Below, one piece after another: positions 3,069 through 13,317 of a stretch of DNA of 15,277 bases. The translations under genes were made by a program, and so were the position numbers. The stretch lies in the UHGV virus genome UHGV-0113810; one strand, written 5' to 3'. Within the stretch, counting starts at the first letter, position 1. Every line of letters begins with the position of its first letter. This DNA comes from a virus. The notes below the pieces were generated by a model. It ran no database searches, was not told where the DNA came from, and was given only the letters and a program-made list of their open reading frames with translations.

Positions 3069-3147
3069 GTTGATAGATCCAGTAATGACCTCAGAATTCC
3101 ATCTGGATTTGTTCAGAACGCTCGGTCTTGCACACCGGGCGTTTTTT
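3069..3147 (+). ncRNA. oop: OOP-like antisense RNA overlapping the 3' end of cII
   Basis: gttgatagatccagtaatgacctcagaa...gttcagaacgctcgg closely matches my recollection of the lambda oop transcript. It ends in a stem (3118-3126 with 3134-3142) plus TTTTTT at 3142-3147. Antisense to the last ~19 codons of cII. Confidence 0.6.
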
Positions 3148-3390
3148 ATTGGTGAGTCCATCAAGCGCATACTTAAAAGCCCTGCTAATCGGACTGATGT
3201 CTGATGCCATTCCGAAAGCACACAAGACCGAAGCAATAAATCTCCAGTCCGTTCTGCTTATCTTCGATTCATGACAGCCAATCATCTTTGCCAGACCGCG
3301 CTGTGTAAGCGTTGACAGGTTGATGAGTAAATCTGTTTCTGCGCGATCAACGTCGCGCTGTGTTGGCTTGCTGTAACTTGCTTGTGTCAT
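3091..3390 (-). CDS. cII: Transcriptional activator CII (lambda-type C-terminus, divergent N-terminus)
   Basis: C-terminus [21 protein letters not shown] matches lambda CII (..[20 protein letters not shown]). Position between cro and O, TTGC-N6-TTGC site at its start, and oop antisense at its 3' end all fit. Confidence 0.85.
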
Positions 3391-3528: not shown

Positions 3529-3738
<210 letters not shown>

Positions 3739-3826: not shown

Positions 3827-4543
<717 letters not shown>

Positions 4544-4615: not shown

Positions 4616-5518
4616 ATGAGCCAAAATCTTGATTCAACACTAGAAACATACATTTCTTGGCAGTTAGAGCAATTTAAAAATAACTTTTTCCCAAGCTGCG
4701 ACGTCATAGCGTACTACGGTGGTATCTTTCCATGGTCAAAAGAAGTTTACCAACCAAAACTTGAGGCTATTGGGGAGATGGCTAACAGTCGTACCAATAG
4801 ATTTCTAGTTATTATACTCAATACAAATGGTGGCTCTGTTGAGTCTGTGGAAAAAATGGTAGAAATTACAAGGCATTTCTATCAAGAGGTATATTTTATC
4901 ATTCCAGATATGGCCATGTCGGCAGGCACAATATGGTGTATGTCTGGAGATAAAATTTACATGAACTATGCTTCTTCATTAGGCCCCATTGACCCTCAAG
5001 TGCAATCCTCTGACGGTAAATGGGTTCCTGCTTTGGGATACCTTGATAAAGTTGAAGAAATGATTACTAAATCCAGAGAAGGAACCATTACCCAAGCTGA
5101 ACTAATGATGCTTAGTCAGTTAGATCTTGCGCACTTAAGGAGATACGAGCAAGCCAGAGAGCTATCAATAGACTTGCTTAAGAAGTGGCTTGTAGAGTAT
5201 AAATTCAGAGAGTGGACGGTTCATCAAGGTAACACAAAACGAGGAAAGCTAGTTTCCAAGAGGGAAAAAGAAGCAAGAGCTAAAATGATCGCTACCGCTC
5301 TTAGTGACAACGGAAAGTGGCATTCTCACGGAAGAACGATAGGAATAAATACTCTTATCAATGACTTAAGAATTAAAGTAGAAGACTTTACATACGACAA
5401 AGATTTTAGCATGGCGTTAAAAAATCTGCACAACGTCATTAATGAATACATGTATAAGACAAATCGACAGGTTCTTGTTCTGTCTTCATTCCCCTTCTCA
5501 GAACAAAGTGAGTCATAA
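4616..5518 (+). CDS. ClpP/crotonase-fold serine-protease-like protein (SDH / S49-like family), at the position occupied by rexA-rexB in lambda
   Basis: 300-aa ORF on the cI strand between cI and OL/PL. Motifs LVIILNTNGGSVESV and PDMAMSAGTIWCMSGDKIY resemble the oxyanion and nucleophile-serine segments of ClpP/SppA-fold proteases. The region is clearly AT-rich compared with cI. Family assignment is from motif recognition only. Confidence 0.6.
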   Translation: MSQNLDSTLETYISWQLEQFKNNFFPSCDVIAYYGGIFPWSKEVYQPKLEAIGEMANSRTNRFLVIILNTNGGSVESVEKMVEITRHFYQEVYFIIPDMAMSAGTIWCMSGDKIYMNYASSLGPIDPQVQSSDGKWVPALGYLDKVEEMITKSREGTITQAELMMLSQLDLAHLRRYEQARELSIDLLKKWLVEYKFREWTVHQGNTKRGKLVSKREKEARAKMIATALSDNGKWHSHGRTIGINTLINDLRIKVEDFTYDKDFSMALKNLHNVINEYMYKTNRQVLVLSSFPFSEQSES

Positions 5519-5689
5519 ATGAGCAAAGACAAATCACTGACACAGCAAGTGGCAGAAATACTTAGCAAGCAAAAAGTTAGCGAGCAAGGTAAAATGATTC
5601 AATCATTAAAGAACAAAGGATTGATCAACAAGCCTGTTTTTACTTTGGCTTATGGACCTGATACTACAGTCTGCCAAATGCACCAATAA
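5519..5689 (+). CDS. Small hypothetical protein (56 aa), translationally coupled to the protease-like gene
   Basis: ATG at 5519 immediately follows the upstream stop (TAAATG). Translation: MSKDKSLTQQVAEILSKQKVSEQGKMIQSLKNKGLINKPVFTLAYGPDTTVCQMHQ. Followed within 10 bp by an intrinsic terminator. Confidence 0.45.
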   Translation: MSKDKSLTQQVAEILSKQKVSEQGKMIQSLKNKGLINKPVFTLAYGPDTTVCQMHQ

Positions 5690-5698
5690 CAAAACCCC

Positions 5699-5725
5699 AC
5701 CCGGCCTCAGTGCCGGGTTTTCTTT
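5699..5725 (+). terminator. Rho-independent terminator closing the cI / protease-module transcription unit
   Basis: Stem CCCGGC (5700-5705) with GCCGGG (5712-5717), loop CTCAGT, followed by TTTTCTTT. Confidence 0.6.
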
Positions 5726-5876: not shown

Positions 5877-5939
5877 AACCATCTGCGGTGATAAATTATC
5901 TCTGGCGGTGTTGACATAAATACCACTGGCGGTGATACT
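5877..5939 (+). promoter_or_regulatory. Left operator OL3-OL2-OL1 with promoter PL (directed rightward in this window)
   Basis: OL3 5877-5893 AACCATCTGCGGTGATA, OL2 5897-5913 TATCTCTGGCGGTGTTG, OL1 5921-5937 TACCACTGGCGGTGATA; -35 TTGACA at 5911-5916 and -10 GATACT at 5934-5939 with a 17-bp spacer. Matches lambda OL/PL. Confidence 0.9.
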
Positions 5940-6007
5940 AAACACATCAGCAGGACGCACTACTCACCAGGGCGGTGAATATACAACGATTCGAATATGA
6001 ATCTACG

Positions 6008-6022
6008 GCGCTGACAAAGCGC
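6008..6022 (+). promoter_or_regulatory. nutL boxB hairpin (GCGCU-GACAA-AGCGC, P22-type)
   Basis: Exact match to the P22 boxB RNA hairpin as I recall it, located in the PL leader upstream of the N-like gene. Confidence 0.6.
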
Positions 6023-6034
6023 AATAACCAAAGT

Positions 6035-6173
6035 GAACTTTGGGGTGTGGTGAAGGGTTCATGGACGGGAATATGTCGCACGTAAAGCGGCGAGGCCTGC
6101 GGGACTATTGCCGAATTGAAGTAGGCCGAAACAGGTCGAAATGGGTCTCCCACCTACCACACCACCAAAGTTC
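6035..6173 (+). promoter_or_regulatory. Long-range stem in the N leader (lambda-type RNase III processing-site architecture)
   Basis: gaactttggggtgtggtg (6035-6052) pairs with accacaccaccaaagttc (6156-6173), enclosing ~100 nt and ending just before the N RBS (caggaggtctatATG). The lambda N leader has the analogous TTTGGGGTGTGTG...CACACACCACCAAAG stem. Confidence 0.55.
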
Positions 6174-6187
6174 ATCAGGAGGTCTAT

Positions 6188-6571
6188 ATGACACGCAGAA
6201 CTCAGTTCAAAGGCAATTCACGTTCTCGTCGTCGTGAGCGTTTAAAGGCAAAGGCATTAGCTAACGGCGTACTGGCCCGCGAAGAAGCAATAAGTTCAGA
6301 AGTATTACACCGCCCTACTCTAAGCAGAGCGCAGATTCAGGCTAAAGGTACTCACGAAACGCCTGAGCGCATAGAAGACGCTAAGCCAATTAAGTTCATG
6401 GCACAGGACGTGATCTGGCAACAGAAAGAATACAGACGCAATCTGGAGCGAGCGGCCATTGTGTACGCGAATGAGTTTGGACATAAGCAACCAGAAACTG
6501 GTGTATGTCTTCCGAACGTAGCTCTTTACGCGGCAGGATACCGGAAATCCAAACAACTGACAGCAAGATGA
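6188..6571 (+). CDS. N: Antitermination protein N (P22 gp24-like)
   Basis: First gene of the PL operon; arginine-rich N-terminal motif GNSRSRRRERLKAKA; C-terminus VALYAAGYRKSKQLTAR resembles P22 N (..ALYAAGHRKSKQITAR). Strong RBS AGGAGG. Confidence 0.8.
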   Translation: MTRRTQFKGNSRSRRRERLKAKALANGVLAREEAISSEVLHRPTLSRAQIQAKGTHETPERIEDAKPIKFMAQDVIWQQKEYRRNLERAAIVYANEFGHKQPETGVCLPNVALYAAGYRKSKQLTAR

Positions 6572-6629
6572 CTTGTGTTGGTCGCCAGAAAACGAAGGGC
6601 AAATCCATCGCATTAATCTGAGGTGGCCC

Positions 6630-6794
6630 ATGAAGAACAGCATCAAGTGCCCGGTATGCGGTCGTGACTTCGATCCACGCACTCCGGTCTGCCACATCAG
6701 CAAGTATCACCAGTCAGAGAAGAACTGCGAGCTGGAGAAGATACGCGATGCCCGGCGGCAATATTTCAAAGTAACAGCGAGTGAGGTTCGGTGA
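6630..6794 (+). CDS. Small Cys-rich (zinc-ribbon-like) protein, 54 aa
   Basis: MKNSIKCPVCGRDFDPRTPVCHISKYH... contains CxxC...CH. GAGG RBS 8 nt upstream. Same strand as the PL operon. Confidence 0.45.
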   Translation: MKNSIKCPVCGRDFDPRTPVCHISKYHQSEKNCELEKIRDARRQYFKVTASEVR

Positions 6795-7132
6795 TGGAAA
6801 ATAAAACGGCTAACGGGATGTACGTACTGCGTGGTGAGCTGAAAAAGGGACTGATAGCGGAGCTGGTAAAGGCATACGACCAGCTGACTCAGGAGTCAGA
6901 AAAATTAAAGATCCTCGGACTCAGGTATAACACCCCTCGACGCATTGTTTATGGCTTTATGTATGAGGTTGCAGCATTAACCGTCAAGGAAATTATGTTT
7001 AAAACTGAGGGTGGCTTTTACATCCCACAGGATGACTTCGAATCGAGCGACGATATCGATTCATTAGCCAAAGAGATCATCGATGCAATTGACTGTAATG
7101 GCGCATTCCTTGAGCGCCTTCTTAAGGAGTAG
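6794..7132 (+). CDS. Hypothetical early-left protein, 112 aa
   Basis: ORF whose start overlaps the upstream stop (TGATG). No recognisable motif. Confidence 0.5.
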   Translation: MENKTANGMYVLRGELKKGLIAELVKAYDQLTQESEKLKILGLRYNTPRRIVYGFMYEVAALTVKEIMFKTEGGFYIPQDDFESSDDIDSLAKEIIDAIDCNGAFLERLLKE

Positions 7133-7134
7133 CC

Positions 7135-7332
7135 ATGAAAAAACTGTATGAAAAACTCCCGGTCGTAGTGCAGGGGGGTCATTTGGGGTCTGCTTATCAC
7201 TGCGGCCATTCTTCTGTCTACCCCGCCAGTCGTCATGTTTCTTCGTTGGTGGTTCAGAGTTTGGGGTGTCTGATCGGCGCAAGCATTACGCACAGAACGA
7301 ATCGAGCGGGTCGAGTGGCCTGCGGTGAATAA
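7135..7332 (+). CDS. Hypothetical small protein; frame uncertain because of a G6 homopolymer at 7173-7178
   Basis: Strong RBS (TAAGGAGTAGCC-ATG). The frame-0 product after the G-run is compositionally odd. The +1 frame after the G-run encodes GVIWGLLITAAILLSTPPVVMFLRWWFRVWGV* (TM-helix-like), ending at 7273. Confidence 0.3.
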   Translation: MKKLYEKLPVVVQGGHLGSAYHCGHSSVYPASRHVSSLVVQSLGCLIGASITHRTNRAGRVACGE

Positions 7333-7348
7333 ACAAAGGGGTGAGGGT

Positions 7349-7531
7349 ATGGAAAATTTGGAAAATGAACTGAAAAGAGTAGTTCAGGAACTGGCCAATG
7401 AAGAAGGCATCAGTTTTGCCGATGCCGTGGACGTTTCGATTAAGACGCTTCGTTACGAAATTCAGCACAGAAAGTCTTTTAATGGGTCGCCTGACCCCGA
7501 TAGAGGCGCATCAGGAGTAGAGGTACGCTGA
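7349..7531 (+). CDS. Hypothetical small acidic protein, 60 aa
   Basis: ATG at 7349 with a GGGGTGAGGG RBS. Translation begins MENLENELKRVVQELANEEG. Confidence 0.4.
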   Translation: MENLENELKRVVQELANEEGISFADAVDVSIKTLRYEIQHRKSFNGSPDPDRGASGVEVR

Positions 7532-7677
7532 CCAAATATCGAAGCGGCAAACAAAAATCGCTGGGGTTTGACGATTGGTGTAACTGGATAGATAGATACG
7601 GAACTTGGTGGGATAAATAACAGGTAACTTAAGCGTATTTACTTTCGCAGCAAACCACTTATTTGAGAGGAATTAAT

Positions 7678-8301
7678 ATGTCATCAATCCGCTTAACTAC
7701 GAGAATGAAAGAGAAAATCGCTCGTAACGCTTTAATTAAGTCTGGGGTTTTCACTGAACTTGAAGAAGTAACAAAGTTAAAGAACCAGCTTGCACTTGAC
7801 GCCAGAGTTATTGCGTTTGGCGGTAAAAAGAAAACTGAGGAAGTGGATCAGTTATCATCCAGGTTAGTAGCTATAAGTGAAGAACTTGAAAAGATGGGAT
7901 GTTCATTTTACTCATACGATGTTCGTTCTACTTCAATTTATCTGACTGTATCTGGCAGAAGGGTTGGATGGCATTCATATGGGAAAGACGGCAACGGCGA
8001 AGATATATTGCTCCCTACTCCAACCAAAGATAAATGCATGTTTGATGCAGAACACGAAATAACAAAAAGGTTTGATGAAATCTGCGCATTGCAACAAAAA
8101 CTTGAAGCCAAGAAAAAGGATATCGAATCAAATGTATGGGCTGCTTTGAACTCAGTCACAACAGTTAAGCGACTTATTGAAGTTTGGCCTGAAAGCAAAG
8201 AATTGCTACCAAAAGAAGCAGACAAAGCAAGTACAGCACTTCCTGCTTTACGGGTAGAAGATTTGAATAAGATGATTGGACTTCCTTCCGAGTCCGCATA
8301 G
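7678..8301 (+). CDS. Hypothetical protein, 207 aa (AT-rich accessory gene in the PL operon)
   Basis: ATG at 7678 with a GAGAGG RBS. Low GC relative to neighbours. No motif I can assign with confidence. Confidence 0.55.
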   Translation: MSSIRLTTRMKEKIARNALIKSGVFTELEEVTKLKNQLALDARVIAFGGKKKTEEVDQLSSRLVAISEELEKMGCSFYSYDVRSTSIYLTVSGRRVGWHSYGKDGNGEDILLPTPTKDKCMFDAEHEITKRFDEICALQQKLEAKKKDIESNVWAALNSVTTVKRLIEVWPESKELLPKEADKASTALPALRVEDLNKMIGLPSESA

Positions 8302-8338
8302 TCGGCCTTTATTTTTGGCACTAACAACAGAGGTGAAT

Positions 8339-8632
8339 ATGAATTATACACCCGGCCCATGGAAATGGTGGACAAGTAACAGCTTTCTGCGATTAAGCAG
8401 TCAAGCAACAGGTAAAGATGGTGGTGTCATCGACTCTTATGTCATGAAGGATGGTCACTCATCACTAATCGTTAGCAAAGAAGATATGAATCTGATAGCG
8501 GCAGCACCAGACCTTTTAAATGCCCTGCAAGCGATGCTAAACAAGGCATACAAGCAAAACTGGAATGACCATTATCCTGATGAAGTATCGAAAGCACAGT
8601 CAGCAATCAGCAAAGCTCTTGGGGAAGAATGA
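8339..8632 (+). CDS. Ea22-like domain protein (TPGPW and LIAAAPDLL motifs), 97 aa
   Basis: MNYTPGPWKWW... and NLIAAAPDLLNALQAM resemble the conserved motifs of ead/Ea22-like phage proteins, and the second motif parallels FIAAANPATVLALLDE in the ORF at 12147-12698. Confidence 0.5.
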   Translation: MNYTPGPWKWWTSNSFLRLSSQATGKDGGVIDSYVMKDGHSSLIVSKEDMNLIAAAPDLLNALQAMLNKAYKQNWNDHYPDEVSKAQSAISKALGEE

Positions 8633-8790
8633 TGAATAAGAAATACATCGTTGAAGTTATAGAGCGAGAAACGAAAGAAGTAATTAAACATTTCGAATTT
8701 GATAATTATAGAAAAGCTGACCGCGTAGAAGAGGGATTGTTGCGACAAAGTAATCTCGAAAAATTTGATGTTGTCATGCGATGCGAATAA
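8629..8790 (+). CDS. Small hypothetical protein, 53 aa
   Basis: Start overlaps the upstream stop (AATGATGA). Translation: MMNKKYIVEVIERETKEVIKHFEFDNYRKADRVEEGLLRQSNLEKFDVVMRCE. Confidence 0.35.
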   Translation: MMNKKYIVEVIERETKEVIKHFEFDNYRKADRVEEGLLRQSNLEKFDVVMRCE

Positions 8791-8882
8791 GCACATATAG
8801 CAGATTTGCGAGTCTGCTATGTGGGCAATGTCGCTCGTAACTAAACAGGAGCCGACTTGTTCTGATTATTGGAAATCTTCTT

Positions 8883-8908
8883 TGCCCTCCAATGTGAGGG
8901 CTTTTTTA
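8883..8908 (+). terminator. Rho-independent terminator within the PL operon (tL-type, likely overridden by N)
   Basis: Stem GCCCTC (8883-8888) with GAGGGC (8895-8900), loop CAATGT, followed by TTTTTT. Confidence 0.55.
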
Positions 8909-8973
8909 TATGCATACCAATAACGCTTCACTCGAGGCGTTTTCGTTATGCAATCAAACAGAAGGAGCATCCT

Positions 8974-9144
8974 ATGCAACAGTTCGCTATTGCAGGGGCG
9001 GCATCGGTTCGCCCTTTCAACCCGATTTTATCGGTGCAGCATTCACGAAAAAATATTTTAACCGGAGCAGACTTTAAACAACCAAGAATGAAAAGTTTGC
9101 TCGAAAAGCTTTGGGATATTTTGAAACAACAAGGCCGTCCATGA
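8974..9144 (+). CDS. CIII-like small protein (candidate FtsH inhibitor), 56 aa
   Basis: MQQFAIAGAAS...SLLEKLWDILKQQGRP resembles lambda CIII (MQYAIAGWPVAG...SLLERITRKLRDGWKRLIDILNQPG) in start and helix region. GAAGGAG RBS. Similarity is recalled, not aligned. Confidence 0.45.
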   Translation: MQQFAIAGAASVRPFNPILSVQHSRKNILTGADFKQPRMKSLLEKLWDILKQQGRP

Positions 9145-9225
9145 GTTTTACAGATAACTGGTCAGACGAAGAATTCATTCGTCAGATGAACAAAATGCTC
9201 AATCAGCACAAAGAACAGGAGAAAG

Positions 9226-9537
9226 ATGATGATTCTGACTCTGAATGATAAGCGTGAAATATCGCAAATCATCGCAAGTTTTACTGATGAAGATTACGAA
9301 CGAATCAACAGTGAAGTTGATCGCCTCTGCAAACGTTGTGACCCAATAAGCGAAATGCTTCGCTCATATAAGCCAGATGAACACACTAAGGACGCTATCG
9401 ACTGGCTGGAAGATGATGACTGTGACTATCAGGAAAAAGCCGCTGAATGGTTCTGGGATGCAATAACCAAAAGAGTTAAGGCTGAATATGCCTTCGCAAT
9501 ATTCAAACGCAGACACATTTTTGGAGAAGCAGCATGA
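9226..9537 (+). CDS. Hypothetical protein, 103 aa, immediately upstream of recT
   Basis: AGGAGAAAG RBS; stop overlaps the RecT start (GCATGA). Acidic; no recognised motif. Confidence 0.5.
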   Translation: MMILTLNDKREISQIIASFTDEDYERINSEVDRLCKRCDPISEMLRSYKPDEHTKDAIDWLEDDDCDYQEKAAEWFWDAITKRVKAEYAFAIFKRRHIFGEAA

Positions 9538-10445
9538 GCAATATCGTTGAATTCGTTAAACAGCAAGAGCAGTTATTCTGCGGAGCATTGACTGAACAGA
9601 CGGTGACATGGGCTAAGGAAAGCCAGTTTGCAATTCAGTATTTCCAGAAAAATGATTACCTGGCTAAAACAGCACTGGCAAATCCAACCAGCGCACAGAA
9701 CGCCATCATCAATGTTGCGGCGATCGGCATCACCTTAAACCCGGCTAGCAAACTGGCTTATCTGGTTCCGCGCGACGGCATGGTGTGCCTTGATATCAGT
9801 TATATGGGATTGCTCCATATTGCAATGGAGTCTGGTGTTATCTCATGGGGTCAGGCAAAACTTGTTCATGCTAACGATACCTATGAGTCAAACGGGCTTG
9901 ATAAAGCACCAACCCATAAATACAACGCCTTCGGTGATCGTGGTGATATCGTTGGCGTTTACTGCACAGTTAAGACGCCAGCAGGTGATTATCTAACGGA
10001 AGAGATGAGTCTGGCTGAAATTGAGGCTGTAAGGAAAACAAGCAAGGCGGCATTCAGCGATAAAGGACCATGGGTAAATCACTGGAATGAGATGGCGCGA
10101 AAGACGGTCGTAAAGCGTGCAAGCAAGTATTGGCCTAAGGCATCACGTCTTGATAGTGCTATTCACGTACTAAACGAAGAAGAAGGTGTATGGACTGAAC
10201 CAGTTATGCCGCACAAATCAGAGGAAGATATCCGCGAAGATGAACGGAAACGCCAGCAGGAAATTATGGAAAAAGCTCAACTTCTTTGTGATGAAATGGC
10301 TCAGGCAGAAAACATGGATGATTTGAAGCGATATTTTGCAGAAGCATATCGCCTGACATCTGGAATGAAATTGCAGCAGAACGTACAAGCCATTTACGCA
10401 GAATGCAAAGCAAAACTGGAGGTTGCCAGTGAGCAAACTATATGA
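9534..10445 (+). CDS. recT: RecT-family single-strand annealing recombinase
   Basis: 303 aa; KGPWVNHWNEMARKTVVKRASKYWPKAS matches the conserved RecT segment (..NGPWVTHWEEMAKKTAIRRLFKYLP..) of Rac RecT as I recall it. Confidence 0.85.
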   Translation: MSNIVEFVKQQEQLFCGALTEQTVTWAKESQFAIQYFQKNDYLAKTALANPTSAQNAIINVAAIGITLNPASKLAYLVPRDGMVCLDISYMGLLHIAMESGVISWGQAKLVHANDTYESNGLDKAPTHKYNAFGDRGDIVGVYCTVKTPAGDYLTEEMSLAEIEAVRKTSKAAFSDKGPWVNHWNEMARKTVVKRASKYWPKASRLDSAIHVLNEEEGVWTEPVMPHKSEEDIREDERKRQQEIMEKAQLLCDEMAQAENMDDLKRYFAEAYRLTSGMKLQQNVQAIYAECKAKLEVASEQTI

Positions 10446-10911
10446 AATTGCCAATGAATACGCAAAATTGATGGATTCAGATTTAGAGCCAGAGATGATT
10501 GCTGACACAATAGAAGGCATGGAAGGAGAATTTACCGATAAAATAGAGCAACTTCTTGCCATTATTAAAAATGAATCTGGTTATGCTGAACGCCTCAAGG
10601 AAGAGGCAAAGTCACTAAATGAACGAGCCGCAGTAATTCAAAATAAGATTGATAGCATTATGTCATATATAGCCTCATCGCTTGAAATGGTTGGCAAGAA
10701 AAAGATTAGAGCAGGTATTCACCAGGTAACAATCCGCAAACCGTCAGAAACTGTAGAAATCATCGACTCAAGCGCCCTTCCTCCTGATTACGTTGAGTTT
10801 GAAACGACAATTAAAGCCGACAAGTTGGCAATCAAGCACCAACTAAAAGCAGGAATAAATATTCCCGGTGCTCAACTCAAGGTTGGTAAACCTTCACTTC
10901 TTATCAAATAA
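10423..10911 (+). CDS. Gp157-like (siphovirus Gp157 family) protein
   Basis: ~160-aa coiled-coil-rich protein directly downstream of the recombinase; composition and position fit the Gp157 family. Start is TTG at 10423 or GTG at 10429, overlapping the RecT end. Confidence 0.45.
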   Translation: MPVSKLYEIANEYAKLMDSDLEPEMIADTIEGMEGEFTDKIEQLLAIIKNESGYAERLKEEAKSLNERAAVIQNKIDSIMSYIASSLEMVGKKKIRAGIHQVTIRKPSETVEIIDSSALPPDYVEFETTIKADKLAIKHQLKAGINIPGAQLKVGKPSLLIK

Positions 10912-11897: not shown

Positions 11898-12160
11898 GTG
11901 AGTCAAAATGCCAAATTAATGGCAACAAGATAGAACCGTGCGCGGCGTTGACGCAATCTCTGGAGCAGGATGCTGAATACACGACGCGGAAAGGTCTGCT
12001 GAAATACAAAATCTATAACCATGAATTAATTCATTCACAAGACCTGATCATGCTGCGGTCAGGCGAGTTTTCTAAATCGCCGATTCGAATTTCATTTTGC
12101 CCGTTCTGTGGTGAAAGTCTGAAAACGTGGGAAGCGGAGGCAACCAGTGAGCAAGATTGA
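11894..12160 (+). CDS. Hypothetical protein, 88 aa, with a C-terminal CPFCG zinc-ribbon-like motif
   Basis: GTG start inside the repeated junction; stop lies 14 nt into the next ORF. Confidence 0.45.
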   Translation: MSESKCQINGNKIEPCAALTQSLEQDAEYTTRKGLLKYKIYNHELIHSQDLIMLRSGEFSKSPIRISFCPFCGESLKTWEAEATSEQD

Positions 12161-12698
12161 CTATCAGGCACTGCGTGAAAAGGCAGAGAAAGCAACGTGT
12201 GGTGTGTGGTCGCTCGAATATGGAGAGGGCCGATTTGATGGTGATGATGCGCTAATTCATCGTGAAGTTGCTGGATATATTCCCATTTGCAGAATTGAAG
12301 GAGCGCATCCTGAAAGCGGTTTCGATGAAGATTTCCAAACTGAACAGCAGGCCAATGCTGAATTCATCGCCGCAGCCAATCCGGCTACCGTCTTGGCGCT
12401 GCTGGATGAACGGGAAAGAAACCAGCAATACATCAAATCCCGCGACCAGGAGAACGAGGATATTGCGCTAACGGTAGGGAAGTTGCGCGTTGAGCTTGAG
12501 GCAGAAAAACAGCGGGCAAAGGATCTGTTTATGGAAAATGCTCGGCTTAAGTCAGGTATAGCCGGTCTGATACACCTCGGTATTCGATATGCAGATGTTG
12601 AGGTCATGAGAATTGCTGGAGATGCCCAGCTTTCTACCCCATGCACTGACAGCATCATAAACAGCATTGCAACAGGCATTCGCATCAAAGGAGAGTGA
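12147..12698 (+). CDS. Ea22-like family protein, 183 aa
   Basis: ALREKAEKATCGVW and FIAAANPATVLALLDERE motifs are typical of ead/Ea22-like proteins; size and position next to xis parallel lambda ea22. Confidence 0.6.
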   Translation: MSKIDYQALREKAEKATCGVWSLEYGEGRFDGDDALIHREVAGYIPICRIEGAHPESGFDEDFQTEQQANAEFIAAANPATVLALLDERERNQQYIKSRDQENEDIALTVGKLRVELEAEKQRAKDLFMENARLKSGIAGLIHLGIRYADVEVMRIAGDAQLSTPCTDSIINSIATGIRIKGE

Positions 12699-12699
12699 T

Positions 12700-13317
12700 A
12701 TGAGCGCTATAACCAAAGAACGTATCAAATTATTCATTAAAAATCCGCTTGATAACGGACTTACTCGTGGCGAACAAATGGAACTGGCACGAATTGCACT
12801 GGCATCACTGGAACGCGAACAGATTCGCCACGAGCATGCCAAATGGTCTGACTCCACATTTGGCTGCGTTGGCCCCATTGGTCCGCTGAAACATCTCTCA
12901 AAAGAGGCACTGGAAGCCGCAGCCGAACCAGACGATCTTAGCGAGTGGGCTGATATGCAGTTTCTGTTGTGGGATGCACAGCGCCGTGCTGGCATCAGCG
13001 ATGCTGAAATTACCGCTGCTATGGAAGATAAATTGAAGATCAACATGGAGCGCCAGTGGCCTGAGCCAAAAGATGGTGAGCCTCGCTTGCACATTAAAGA
13101 ACCCGGCAACTATCCGGTAACTCCGGATGGTTGGATAAGCTGTAGTGAGCGAATGCCCCCTCAAGATGATTGGATTTTAATTTATTCAAAGCACGGCGAG
13201 TATATGGCAGGACAGGTACAAGGGGAATACGTGGAGTTGAGCGACGGCACTTTATCGTGGTTAGGGAACGCCTTGTTCTGGATGCCGCTACCAGAACCGC
13301 CGCAGGAGGTGAAGTAA
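12700..13317 (+). CDS. DUF550/DUF551-like phage protein (dATP/dGTP pyrophosphohydrolase-like N-terminus), 205 aa
   Basis: GGAGAG RBS. C-terminal WISCSERMPP...WMPLPEPP resembles DUF551; N-terminal part resembles the DUF550 region. Recalled from annotation patterns, low certainty. Confidence 0.45.
   Translation: MSAITKERIKLFIKNPLDNGLTRGEQMELARIALASLEREQIRHEHAKWSDSTFGCVGPIGPLKHLSKEALEAAAEPDDLSEWADMQFLLWDAQRRAGISDAEITAAMEDKLKINMERQWPEPKDGEPRLHIKEPGNYPVTPDGWISCSERMPPQDDWILIYSKHGEYMAGQVQGEYVELSDGTLSWLGNALFWMPLPEPPQEVK

Follow-up and report, generated by a model that had tools for sequence, protein, structure and literature searches.

Nmad5 (PF18757) is described in its Pfam entry as "nucleotide modification associated domain 5", a family named for its association with base-modification gene clusters. 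In the thymidine-hypermodifying phages PAE1, M6, and SN1 (Pseudomonas) and Pam3 (Pseudanabaena), the Nmad5 gene lies amid genes for hydroxymethylase, 5-hydroxymethyldeoxyuridine (5-hmdU) kinase, aGPT-Pplase, and DNA polymerase. In the lambdoid phages mEp235 (gp37) and HK542 (gp33) and in Escherichia coli prophages, it follows N (or N/Nun) and precedes cIII-kil. Here we analyzed a 15,277-nt stretch of the virus genome UHGV-0113810 (hereafter, the window), which represents the immunity/early region of a lambdoid prophage, and in it the block at positions 7532-8800, whose largest gene encodes an Nmad5 protein. In phage lambda, the equivalent position is, by the textbook lambda map, that of ral and sieB. 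A sequence-only reading of the window had regarded the block as an AT-rich accessory part of the early-left operon in which anti-defense or exclusion functions would be expected. The reading that we favor, with about even confidence, is that the block is a routine mosaic of the PL operon and that its Nmad5 protein is an early factor without catalytic activity that is linked to DNA replication/recombination.

The 207-amino acid (aa) protein, which the sequence-only reading could not place, is a canonical Nmad5 protein (Table 1). It matched PF18757 with an E value of 3.7e-72 (243.2 bits; cut-off, 27), and residues 4-203 aligned with positions 1-206 of the 206-position profile. The gene starts at the ATG at 7678, with GAGAGG located 7-12 nt upstream, and its homologs begin with MSSIRL; the initial list of open reading frames (ORFs) had used a TTG at 7663. 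The exact sequence was found on 267 public contigs, where the Prokaryotic Genome Annotation Pipeline (PGAP) names it "Nmad5 family putative nucleotide modification protein." The region was matched in 478 of 5,426 complete E. coli genomes (~9%), in which near-identical genes carry the PGAP Nmad5 name. The protein was 99.5% identical to mEp235 gp37 and ~96% identical to HK542 gp33 and to proteins of Shiga toxin 1 (Stx1) phages. Variation among Nmad5 alleles was biased to the third codon position, which supports a coding function. Among 1.84 billion cluster representatives, 2,272 belonged to the family at E ≤ 0.001, and nearly all members are single-domain proteins of ~200 aa. No functional account was found in the literature on PF18757, mEp235, or PhiR12. 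A second Pfam match, to YfjL_C, reached 18 bits (cut-off, 28) and was treated as noise, and homology of Nmad5 with the Gp157-like protein of the window was tested and rejected. The Nmad5 match covered only residues 34-207 and was split between two places in dozens of records of Stx2a-converting phages (for example, LC616047.1, 11131-11652), which suggests from sequence that this lineage has a truncated or interrupted copy of the gene.

We next compared 147 diverse Nmad5 representatives (25-57% identity) and regarded positions as conserved when at least 80% of the sequences agreed. The conserved positions were R5, L6, I14, A18, G23, R43, G48, G49, G93, V153, T162, L166, W170, P171, E172, E175, L176, P178, L188, P189, L196, N197, G201, L202, and P203. 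All of them are present in the window protein, including the C-terminal module WPE..EL.P ... LP ... LN...GLP. They are chiefly glycines, prolines, and hydrophobic residues, together with R5, R43, T162, E172, E175, and N197, and no conserved His/Asp/Cys/Ser/Lys catalytic set was found across the 147 sequences. The most conserved segment was formed by the C-terminal 45 residues. In an AlphaFold2 model of the protein, the predicted local distance difference test score (pLDDT) was 86 overall and ~46-57 for residues 184-207. A segment that is invariant yet poorly ordered is typical of folding upon a partner. Profile and structure searches had been proposed for this protein by the sequence-only reading; the profile search placed it in PF18757, whereas a fold search of the PDB with the model returned no match and no enzyme-like fold. 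Sequence-profile searches of the PDB with the Nmad5 family and with the family of the 97-aa protein also returned nothing. The isoelectric point of the family is near neutral (median, 7.7), and the N-terminal segment is mildly basic. On sequence grounds, the lambdoid Nmad5 is probably not a DNA-modifying enzyme.

The gene neighborhoods of Nmad5 bear on the same question. In Yuavirus PAE1, Nmad5 is located between a 5-hmdU DNA kinase gene and a thymidylate-synthase-like gene in a hypermodification cluster beside the DNA polymerase gene. In cyanophage Pam3, it is located between aGPT-Pplase1 and thymidylate synthase genes in a 5-hmdU cluster, again beside the DNA polymerase gene, and in the SN1/M6 group it is listed within the thymidine hypermodification cassette. 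These proteins belong to the same Pfam family over their full length (PAE1 Orf51, E value of 7.4e-51) and have the C-terminal WPE...LN..GLP module in common with the window protein; the identity detected by tblastn was ~30-44% and was confined to the C-terminal part. Unlike them, the lambdoid copy stands without modification partners. In lambdoid prophages of Escherichia, Klebsiella, and Pantoea, the first gene of appreciable size downstream of N or of the repressor gene is Nmad5. It precedes replication gene O directly in Vibrio phage Athena1, follows the helicase-primase gene in Edwardsiella phage eiAU, lies upstream of DUF2800 nuclease, Enc34 single-stranded DNA-binding protein (SSB), and PolA genes in a Providencia prophage, and lies amid head genes in Dhillonvirus; no modification enzymes accompany it in any of these contexts. 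The N4-like phage Pylas, with the gene order thyA-Nmad5-PD-(D/E)XK-primase-AAA_24-SSB-RusA, was likewise grouped as lacking modification enzymes. The complete 37.6-kb genome of mEp235 contained no hydroxymethylase, kinase, pyrophosphorylase, glycosyltransferase, or methyltransferase gene, and the window contained no thymidylate-synthase-like, kinase, aGPT-Pplase, or transferase gene. Judged by gene content, the linkage behind the words "nucleotide modification" is not found for the lambdoid Nmad5, because the partner genes are missing in the window and in mEp235. Location inside the 5-hmdU clusters of PAE1 and Pam3 and in the SN1/M6 cassette would fit a genuine nucleotide-modification component, acting here alone or with host enzymes. 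However, we consider this role improbable for the lambdoid protein, given the missing catalytic residues, the missing enzyme-like fold, and the lambdoid, Klebsiella/Pantoea prophage, and Dhillonvirus contexts that lack hydroxymethylase, kinase, and transferase genes. Lambdoid coliphage DNA is not known to be hypermodified, which also argues against it.

Nmad5 was also common in strictly virulent phages, where it resides within replication and nucleotide modules (Pylas, PAE1, and Pam3). It co-occurred with every recombinase type seen, namely, lambda Red with Gam, Erf with Abc2, Rad52 with SSB, and RecT. Because it is found alongside all of these sets, Nmad5 replaces no single recombination or anti-RecBCD function. 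A role as a substitute for Gam or Abc2 was rejected, as it occurs with Gam, with Abc2, and with neither.

The remainder of the block was examined for its limits and composition. All three ORFs of the sequence-only reading (207, 97, and 53 aa) are present on the plus strand. The GC content of 7532-8800 was 0.398, compared with 0.459 for the whole window, and only 3.6% of segments of 1269 bp were as low in GC; the sole lower trough is the protease gene downstream of cI. The block had been described as more AT-rich than its flanks. This was true of the upstream flank (6188-7531; GC content, 0.488), whereas the contrast with the downstream flank (8801-9533; 0.424) was small. Alignment with HK542 and with six differently flanked E. 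coli prophage loci placed the module junctions at 7647, 8331, and 8825. The first 115 nt of the interval, 7532-7646, thus lie outside the block as the 3' end of a 1,054-bp insertion that is separate from it, and the remainder stands as the block. The Nmad5 module, comprising the ribosome-binding site, the gene, and 30 nt of 3' flank, was a single 685-bp segment with 96-100% identity in HK542 and the six prophage loci. The insertion upstream of it is absent from prophage loci L019 and L021, in which the gap between N and the Nmad5 module is 9 bp and the DNA of the N module is 98.6-99.9% identical to that of the window. Among the ORFs of the insertion, the 73-aa ORF gave weak zinc-ribbon or Rad50 zinc-hook-like matches, and the 113-, 65-, and 68-aa ORFs matched no family. 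Folding of the spacer at 7528-7680 revealed no notable RNA structure (z score, -0.08).

Downstream of Nmad5, the variable cassette is replaced by ~45 bp in HK542, L019, and L022 and is partly divergent in L002, L008, and L021, and the terminator part of the module that follows (8825-8907) is 96-99% conserved in other phages. Compared with mEp235 and HK542, which encode a 96-99.5% identical Nmad5 at the same place, the window differs in having the insertion before Nmad5 and a cassette after it, where their slot is empty. A survey of this slot across 81 lambdoid loci, all with an Nmad5 of ≥95% identity, revealed at least seven alternative contents. In ~31 loci, nothing preceded the terminator or cIII; 12 had a gene of the same family as the 97-aa protein, 10 had a gene for a 322-aa coiled-coil protein, and 8 had a 156-aa gene with a DUF2528 gene behind it; other contents were rarer. 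Since the slot varies across loci, Nmad5 is independent of the two small genes. By these alignments, the interval 7532-8800 consists of two independent units plus part of another module, a classic case of mosaicism at gene boundaries, and the block is a swappable accessory slot of ordinary lambdoid type. The sequence-only reading was sound in its argument from position, which compared the block with the place of ral and sieB in the PL operon of lambda. All three exact proteins are already public, under family names or as conserved hypotheticals, so that neither their sequences nor their families are new; NCBIfam matched none of the three ORFs.

The 97-aa protein, the second that had not been placed, belongs to PF27050 (Phage_P22_Y8K6) and phrog_1273. 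Membership in PF27050 was established indirectly, from precomputed matches on all 120 listed homologs, including those with 96-99% identity. The gene starts at the ATG at 8339; the listed ORF started at a TTG at 8276. The exact protein occurs on 345 public contigs, always as "hypothetical," and its homologs occur in several genera of Enterobacteriaceae. PF27050 proteins of P22-like Salmonella phages were 71-77% identical to it and have in common with it the conserved N-terminal TPGPWxWWTSNSFLRLSS...DGGVIDS and a C-terminal AISKALGEE helix; in P22-like and lambdoid phages, their genes often follow Nmad5 directly, as here. Among Y8K6 alleles, the central part was variable, and recombination junctions lay inside the gene at 8345 and 8480/8601.

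The earlier label of this protein as Ea22-like does not hold. No match to PF13935 was obtained even at E 10, whereas the control ORF, the Ead/Ea22-like gene of the window itself, scored 1.2e-35. BLASTP of the 97-aa protein against that Ead/Ea22-like protein found nothing, and hhalign aligned only a 15-residue LIAAAP..L.AL motif with a probability of 0.2%. The likeness is this short motif, LIAAAPDLLNAL in the 97-aa protein and FIAAANPATVLALL in the Ead/Ea22-like protein, and a single database homolog, in Pseudomonas phage EM, is labeled "Ead/Ea22 domain-containing." In other phages, for example, in L051, unrelated N-terminal halves are fused to the helical hairpin that forms the C terminus of the Y8K6 protein (LIAAAPDLLEAL ... 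AISKALGEE; 8480-8632), and many tblastn matches of the protein span residues 44-97 only. These observations suggest that the hairpin is a small domain that is shuffled among proteins, with a motif that also resembles one in Ead/Ea22 proteins.

The 53-aa ORF is coupled to the 97-aa gene, as had been read from the sequence, with its ATG overlapping the TGA of that gene as ATGA. Phages mEp043 and mEp213 encode a product with 100% identity to it. Across four alleles, all six variant sites were at codon position 3, and five of the six were synonymous; by this pattern, the ORF behaves as a coding sequence. It is hardly credible, then, that the two small ORFs are not genes and that the AT-rich segment is non-coding filler. 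Their shortness, their AT-richness, and overlapping ORFs on the minus strand might have pointed that way, but both ORFs gave full-length PHROG matches (E values of 3e-24 and 3.4e-40), the 97-aa protein has its homologs across genera, and the variation in the 53-aa ORF is all at the third position. The minus-strand ORFs (7938-8408 and 8572-8796) were rejected as genes: they matched no family and are in the wrong frame for the third-position variation.

The location of the block in the early-left operon, as proposed before, was borne out by the PL promoter, the N gene, and the cIII-like gene, all of which were located around it. The segment 5900-5969 aligned at 94% with positions 2473-2542 of the HK542 locus, which span the HK542 feature "similar to lambda PL" (2484-2512). 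The intrinsic terminator read after the block from sequence was also found, with a 6-bp GC-rich stem, a U6 tract, and a minimum free energy of -11.1 kcal/mol, 94 nt past the stop codon of the 53-aa gene; a second, weaker hairpin is at 8922-8941. From this terminator, expression of the block had been taken to depend on N read-through. That argument is reversed, since the terminator comes after the block and can render the expression of cIII and of the genes beyond it, but not that of the block itself, dependent on N. A scan for intrinsic terminators revealed no convincing candidate in the stretch from PL to 7678. No sigma-70-like promoter was found between PL and 9147 and hence none inside the block. 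Being on the same strand, downstream of PL, and upstream of the terminator and cIII, the three genes are, judging by this arrangement, presumably co-transcribed with N.

These signals also bear on a prophage-expressed exclusion or defense module that, like sieB or rex, would protect the lysogen from other phages. The block is an AT-rich, horizontally shuffled prophage cassette at the position of lambda sieB, and nmad5 of Dhillonvirus could not be cloned and is apparently toxic (PMC11846954). On the other side, with no sigma-70-like promoter between PL and 9147, CI should silence the block in a lysogen, and it has no internal promoter of the sieB kind. In addition, PADLOC, at E ≤ 0.01, assigned none of the three ORFs to a defense family, and the occurrence of Nmad5 in strictly virulent phages does not fit such a role. 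We regard an exclusion module as very improbable.

An experimental link between Nmad5 and host defense comes from Dhillonvirus. Yamashita et al. reported that phages escaping Tmn carry Nmad5 K216E (SM_A8) or K296E (SMS22), that reverting the mutation restores sensitivity to Tmn, and that deleting nmad5, which is dispensable for phage growth, gives no escape (PMC11846954). SM_A8 Nmad5 is a member of PF18757 (E value of 2.8e-55). The Dhillonvirus proteins thus belong to the same family as the window protein, and K216 of SM_A8 falls opposite R165 of the window protein, a conserved basic residue that directly precedes L166...WPE and stands at the beginning of the conserved C-terminal module. They differ from it in length (254-334 aa, with an extended middle region, versus 207 aa) and in gene location, on the opposite strand among head genes, and the two are ~33% identical over 101 residues. 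Since deletion of nmad5 left Tmn sensitivity unchanged, the wild-type protein does not act as an inhibitor of Tmn. By analogy, the Tmn data fit an Nmad5 that is an early protein able to affect a defense system. The mutants are the only experimental link to defense and, as evidence from relatives, assign no anti-defense role to the lambdoid Nmad5. The "NMAD" defense system validated in the DefensePredictor paper was rejected as a further link, because it contains Nmad2 and not Nmad5.

At least one of the three proteins might directly inhibit host restriction or another defense, as Ral or Ocr does. The block shares with lambda ral/sieB its position between N and cIII and an accessory, non-essential, and swappable character (textbook lambda map); the contents of the slot after Nmad5 are hypervariable, as is typical of counter-defense hot spots; its place just after PL and N implies early expression; and Nmad5 mutations alter the outcome of Tmn defense. 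However, a Pfam scan of the three ORFs at E ≤ 0.1 gave only Nmad5 and sub-threshold noise, with no similarity to Ral, SieB, Ocr/Ard, or another Pfam family, and Pfam, NCBIfam, and PHROGs, which are general libraries and not specific to anti-defense, held no anti-defense annotation for them. The Tmn result for the nmad5 deletion also counts against direct inhibition, as does the conservation of Nmad5 and its residence in replication modules of virulent phages, unlike fast-evolving inhibitors. We therefore consider an anti-defense block unlikely.

From the lack of catalytic residues, the lack of modification partners, and the early or replication-module contexts, we infer that the lambdoid Nmad5 is a non-catalytic early factor. 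In the predicted structure, a beta-hairpin is inserted into a helical bundle, and the C-terminal tail, with the motif T..L...WPE..EL.P ... LP......LN...GLP, is flexible yet almost invariant. This tail would bind a conserved replication, recombination, or repair partner, or DNA itself, and Nmad5 would thereby tune early phage DNA metabolism. It might thus incidentally be a determinant to which host defenses such as Tmn respond. The Y8K6 and 53-aa genes would most likely encode small accessory proteins of the same early program.

Several points weigh against this proposal. The case for partner binding consists of the conservation of the tail and the confidence values of the model. The near-neutral isoelectric point of the family favors neither DNA binding nor DNA mimicry. 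The association with modification clusters is real in Yuavirus and Pam3, so that a modification-related role exerted through host enzymes is conceivable for the lambdoid protein. The Tmn evidence comes from proteins ~33% identical over the C-terminal half and is hard to interpret, because deletion gives no escape. In phage T2, according to a 2026 preprint, the direct trigger of Tmn is RIIB, an early replisome-associated, membrane-anchoring protein that is unrelated to Nmad5 (PMC13001434). In our comparison of Nmad5 with T4 RIIB, homology was rejected (hhalign probability, 0.6%; BLASTP E value, 2.7). A more far-reaching version, in which the lambdoid stand-alone Nmad5 would be a new early host-takeover or replication-accessory protein with a fold that has no solved relative, its tail would bind a replication or repair factor that is universally conserved, and membrane NTPase defenses of the Tmn type would respond to that interaction, appears doubtful to us.

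The other features of the window are listed in Table 1; the cIII-like gene expected beyond the block was found there. An IS66-family transposase gene (51-1361; PF03050, E value of 1e-102) adjoins a DnaB-like helicase gene (together, 51-2045) that is reduced to the N-terminal domain, encoding 226 aa compared with 458-478 aa in relatives. With this IS66-family gene set against an N-terminal-only helicase gene, the replication module looks disrupted, and the host prophage of the block is probably defective.

Directly 3' of cI on the plus strand, 4616-5689 encodes a 300-aa ClpP-like serine protease of the SDH family (PF01972, E value of 1.6e-10; phrog_11747, E value of 2e-99) and a 56-aa ORF (phrog_28875), and the segment ends at a terminator-like hairpin (5699-5718). 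No other part of the window is richer in AT (GC content, 0.385), and the segment occupies the slot in which lambda carries rexAB. The 300-aa protein had no PADLOC match; the 56-aa ORF was outside that scan. This segment is a candidate exclusion or defense module expressed in the lysogen and is arguably more intriguing than the block at 7532-8800.

The recombination module at 9534-10911 consists of RecT and the Siphovirus Gp157-like protein (PF05565, E value of 1.8e-36), which also gave a weak Mu Gam-like match. No Gam or Abc2 domain was found among the window ORFs scanned, and no exonuclease domain was found in the ORFs scanned between cIII and xis, a region with several small unscanned ORFs. 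A 216-aa ORF (12667-13317) fuses a dATP/dGTP pyrophosphohydrolase domain (PF04447, E value of 5e-42) to DUF551; the DUF551 proteins at the matching position in related prophages had no PF04447 match. An Rfam scan of the whole window and a repeat search found nothing.

Table 1. Features of the 15,277-nt window and the evidence for each.
Feature	Position	Strand	Evidence or remark
Replication genes		-	Alongside Cro and CII
CII gene	3091-3390	-	
Cro gene	3529-3729	-	
Lambda-type CI gene	3830-4543	+	
PL-N module	5900-6592	+	Alignment to HK542 and prophage loci
PL-type promoter	5911-5939	+	TTGACA-17-GATACT, 10/12 consensus matches
Antiterminator N gene, 127 aa	6188-6571	+	First in operon; PF25694 N_peptide, E 9.8e-16
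1,054-bp insertion	6593-7646	+	Between N and Nmad5 module; small ORFs of 73, 113, 65, and 68 aa
Conserved Nmad5 module	7647-8331	+	Gene with its ribosome-binding site and 30 nt of 3' flank
Nmad5-family gene, 207 aa	7678-8301	+	PF18757, full length; phrog_1965, E 1e-83
Variable cassette	8332-8824	+	Y8K6 and 53-aa genes; between Nmad5 and terminator/cIII modules
Y8K6-family gene, 97 aa	8339-8632	+	PF27050 (Phage_P22_Y8K6); phrog_1273, E 3e-24
53-aa gene	8629-8790	+	phrog_6949, full length, E 3.4e-40
Terminator-cIII module	8825-9190	+	
Intrinsic terminator	8884-8908	+	Downstream of block; stem 8884-8901 GCCCUC/GAGGGC, 6-nt loop, then U6
cIII-like gene, 56 aa	8974-9144	+	Next conserved landmark; phrog_550 "CIII", E 1e-22
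RecT gene	9534-10445	+	
Ead/Ea22-like gene	12147-12698	+	Ead_Ea22 hidden Markov model (PF13935), E 1.2e-35
Gp157-like, excisionase, and integrase genes		+	

For annotation, these results change the "unknown" 207-aa protein to Nmad5 and the "Ea22-like" protein to the Y8K6 family. The name Nmad5 implies DNA modification, yet most of the contexts examined here lack modification enzymes. mEp235 and HK542 are tractable model phages for Nmad5. Establishing what the family does would help to explain early phage DNA metabolism and, in view of the mutants that escape Tmn, might also aid the engineering of therapeutic phages. If the lambdoid protein were indeed a new host-takeover or replication protein, the words "nucleotide modification" would misname most members of the Nmad5 family.

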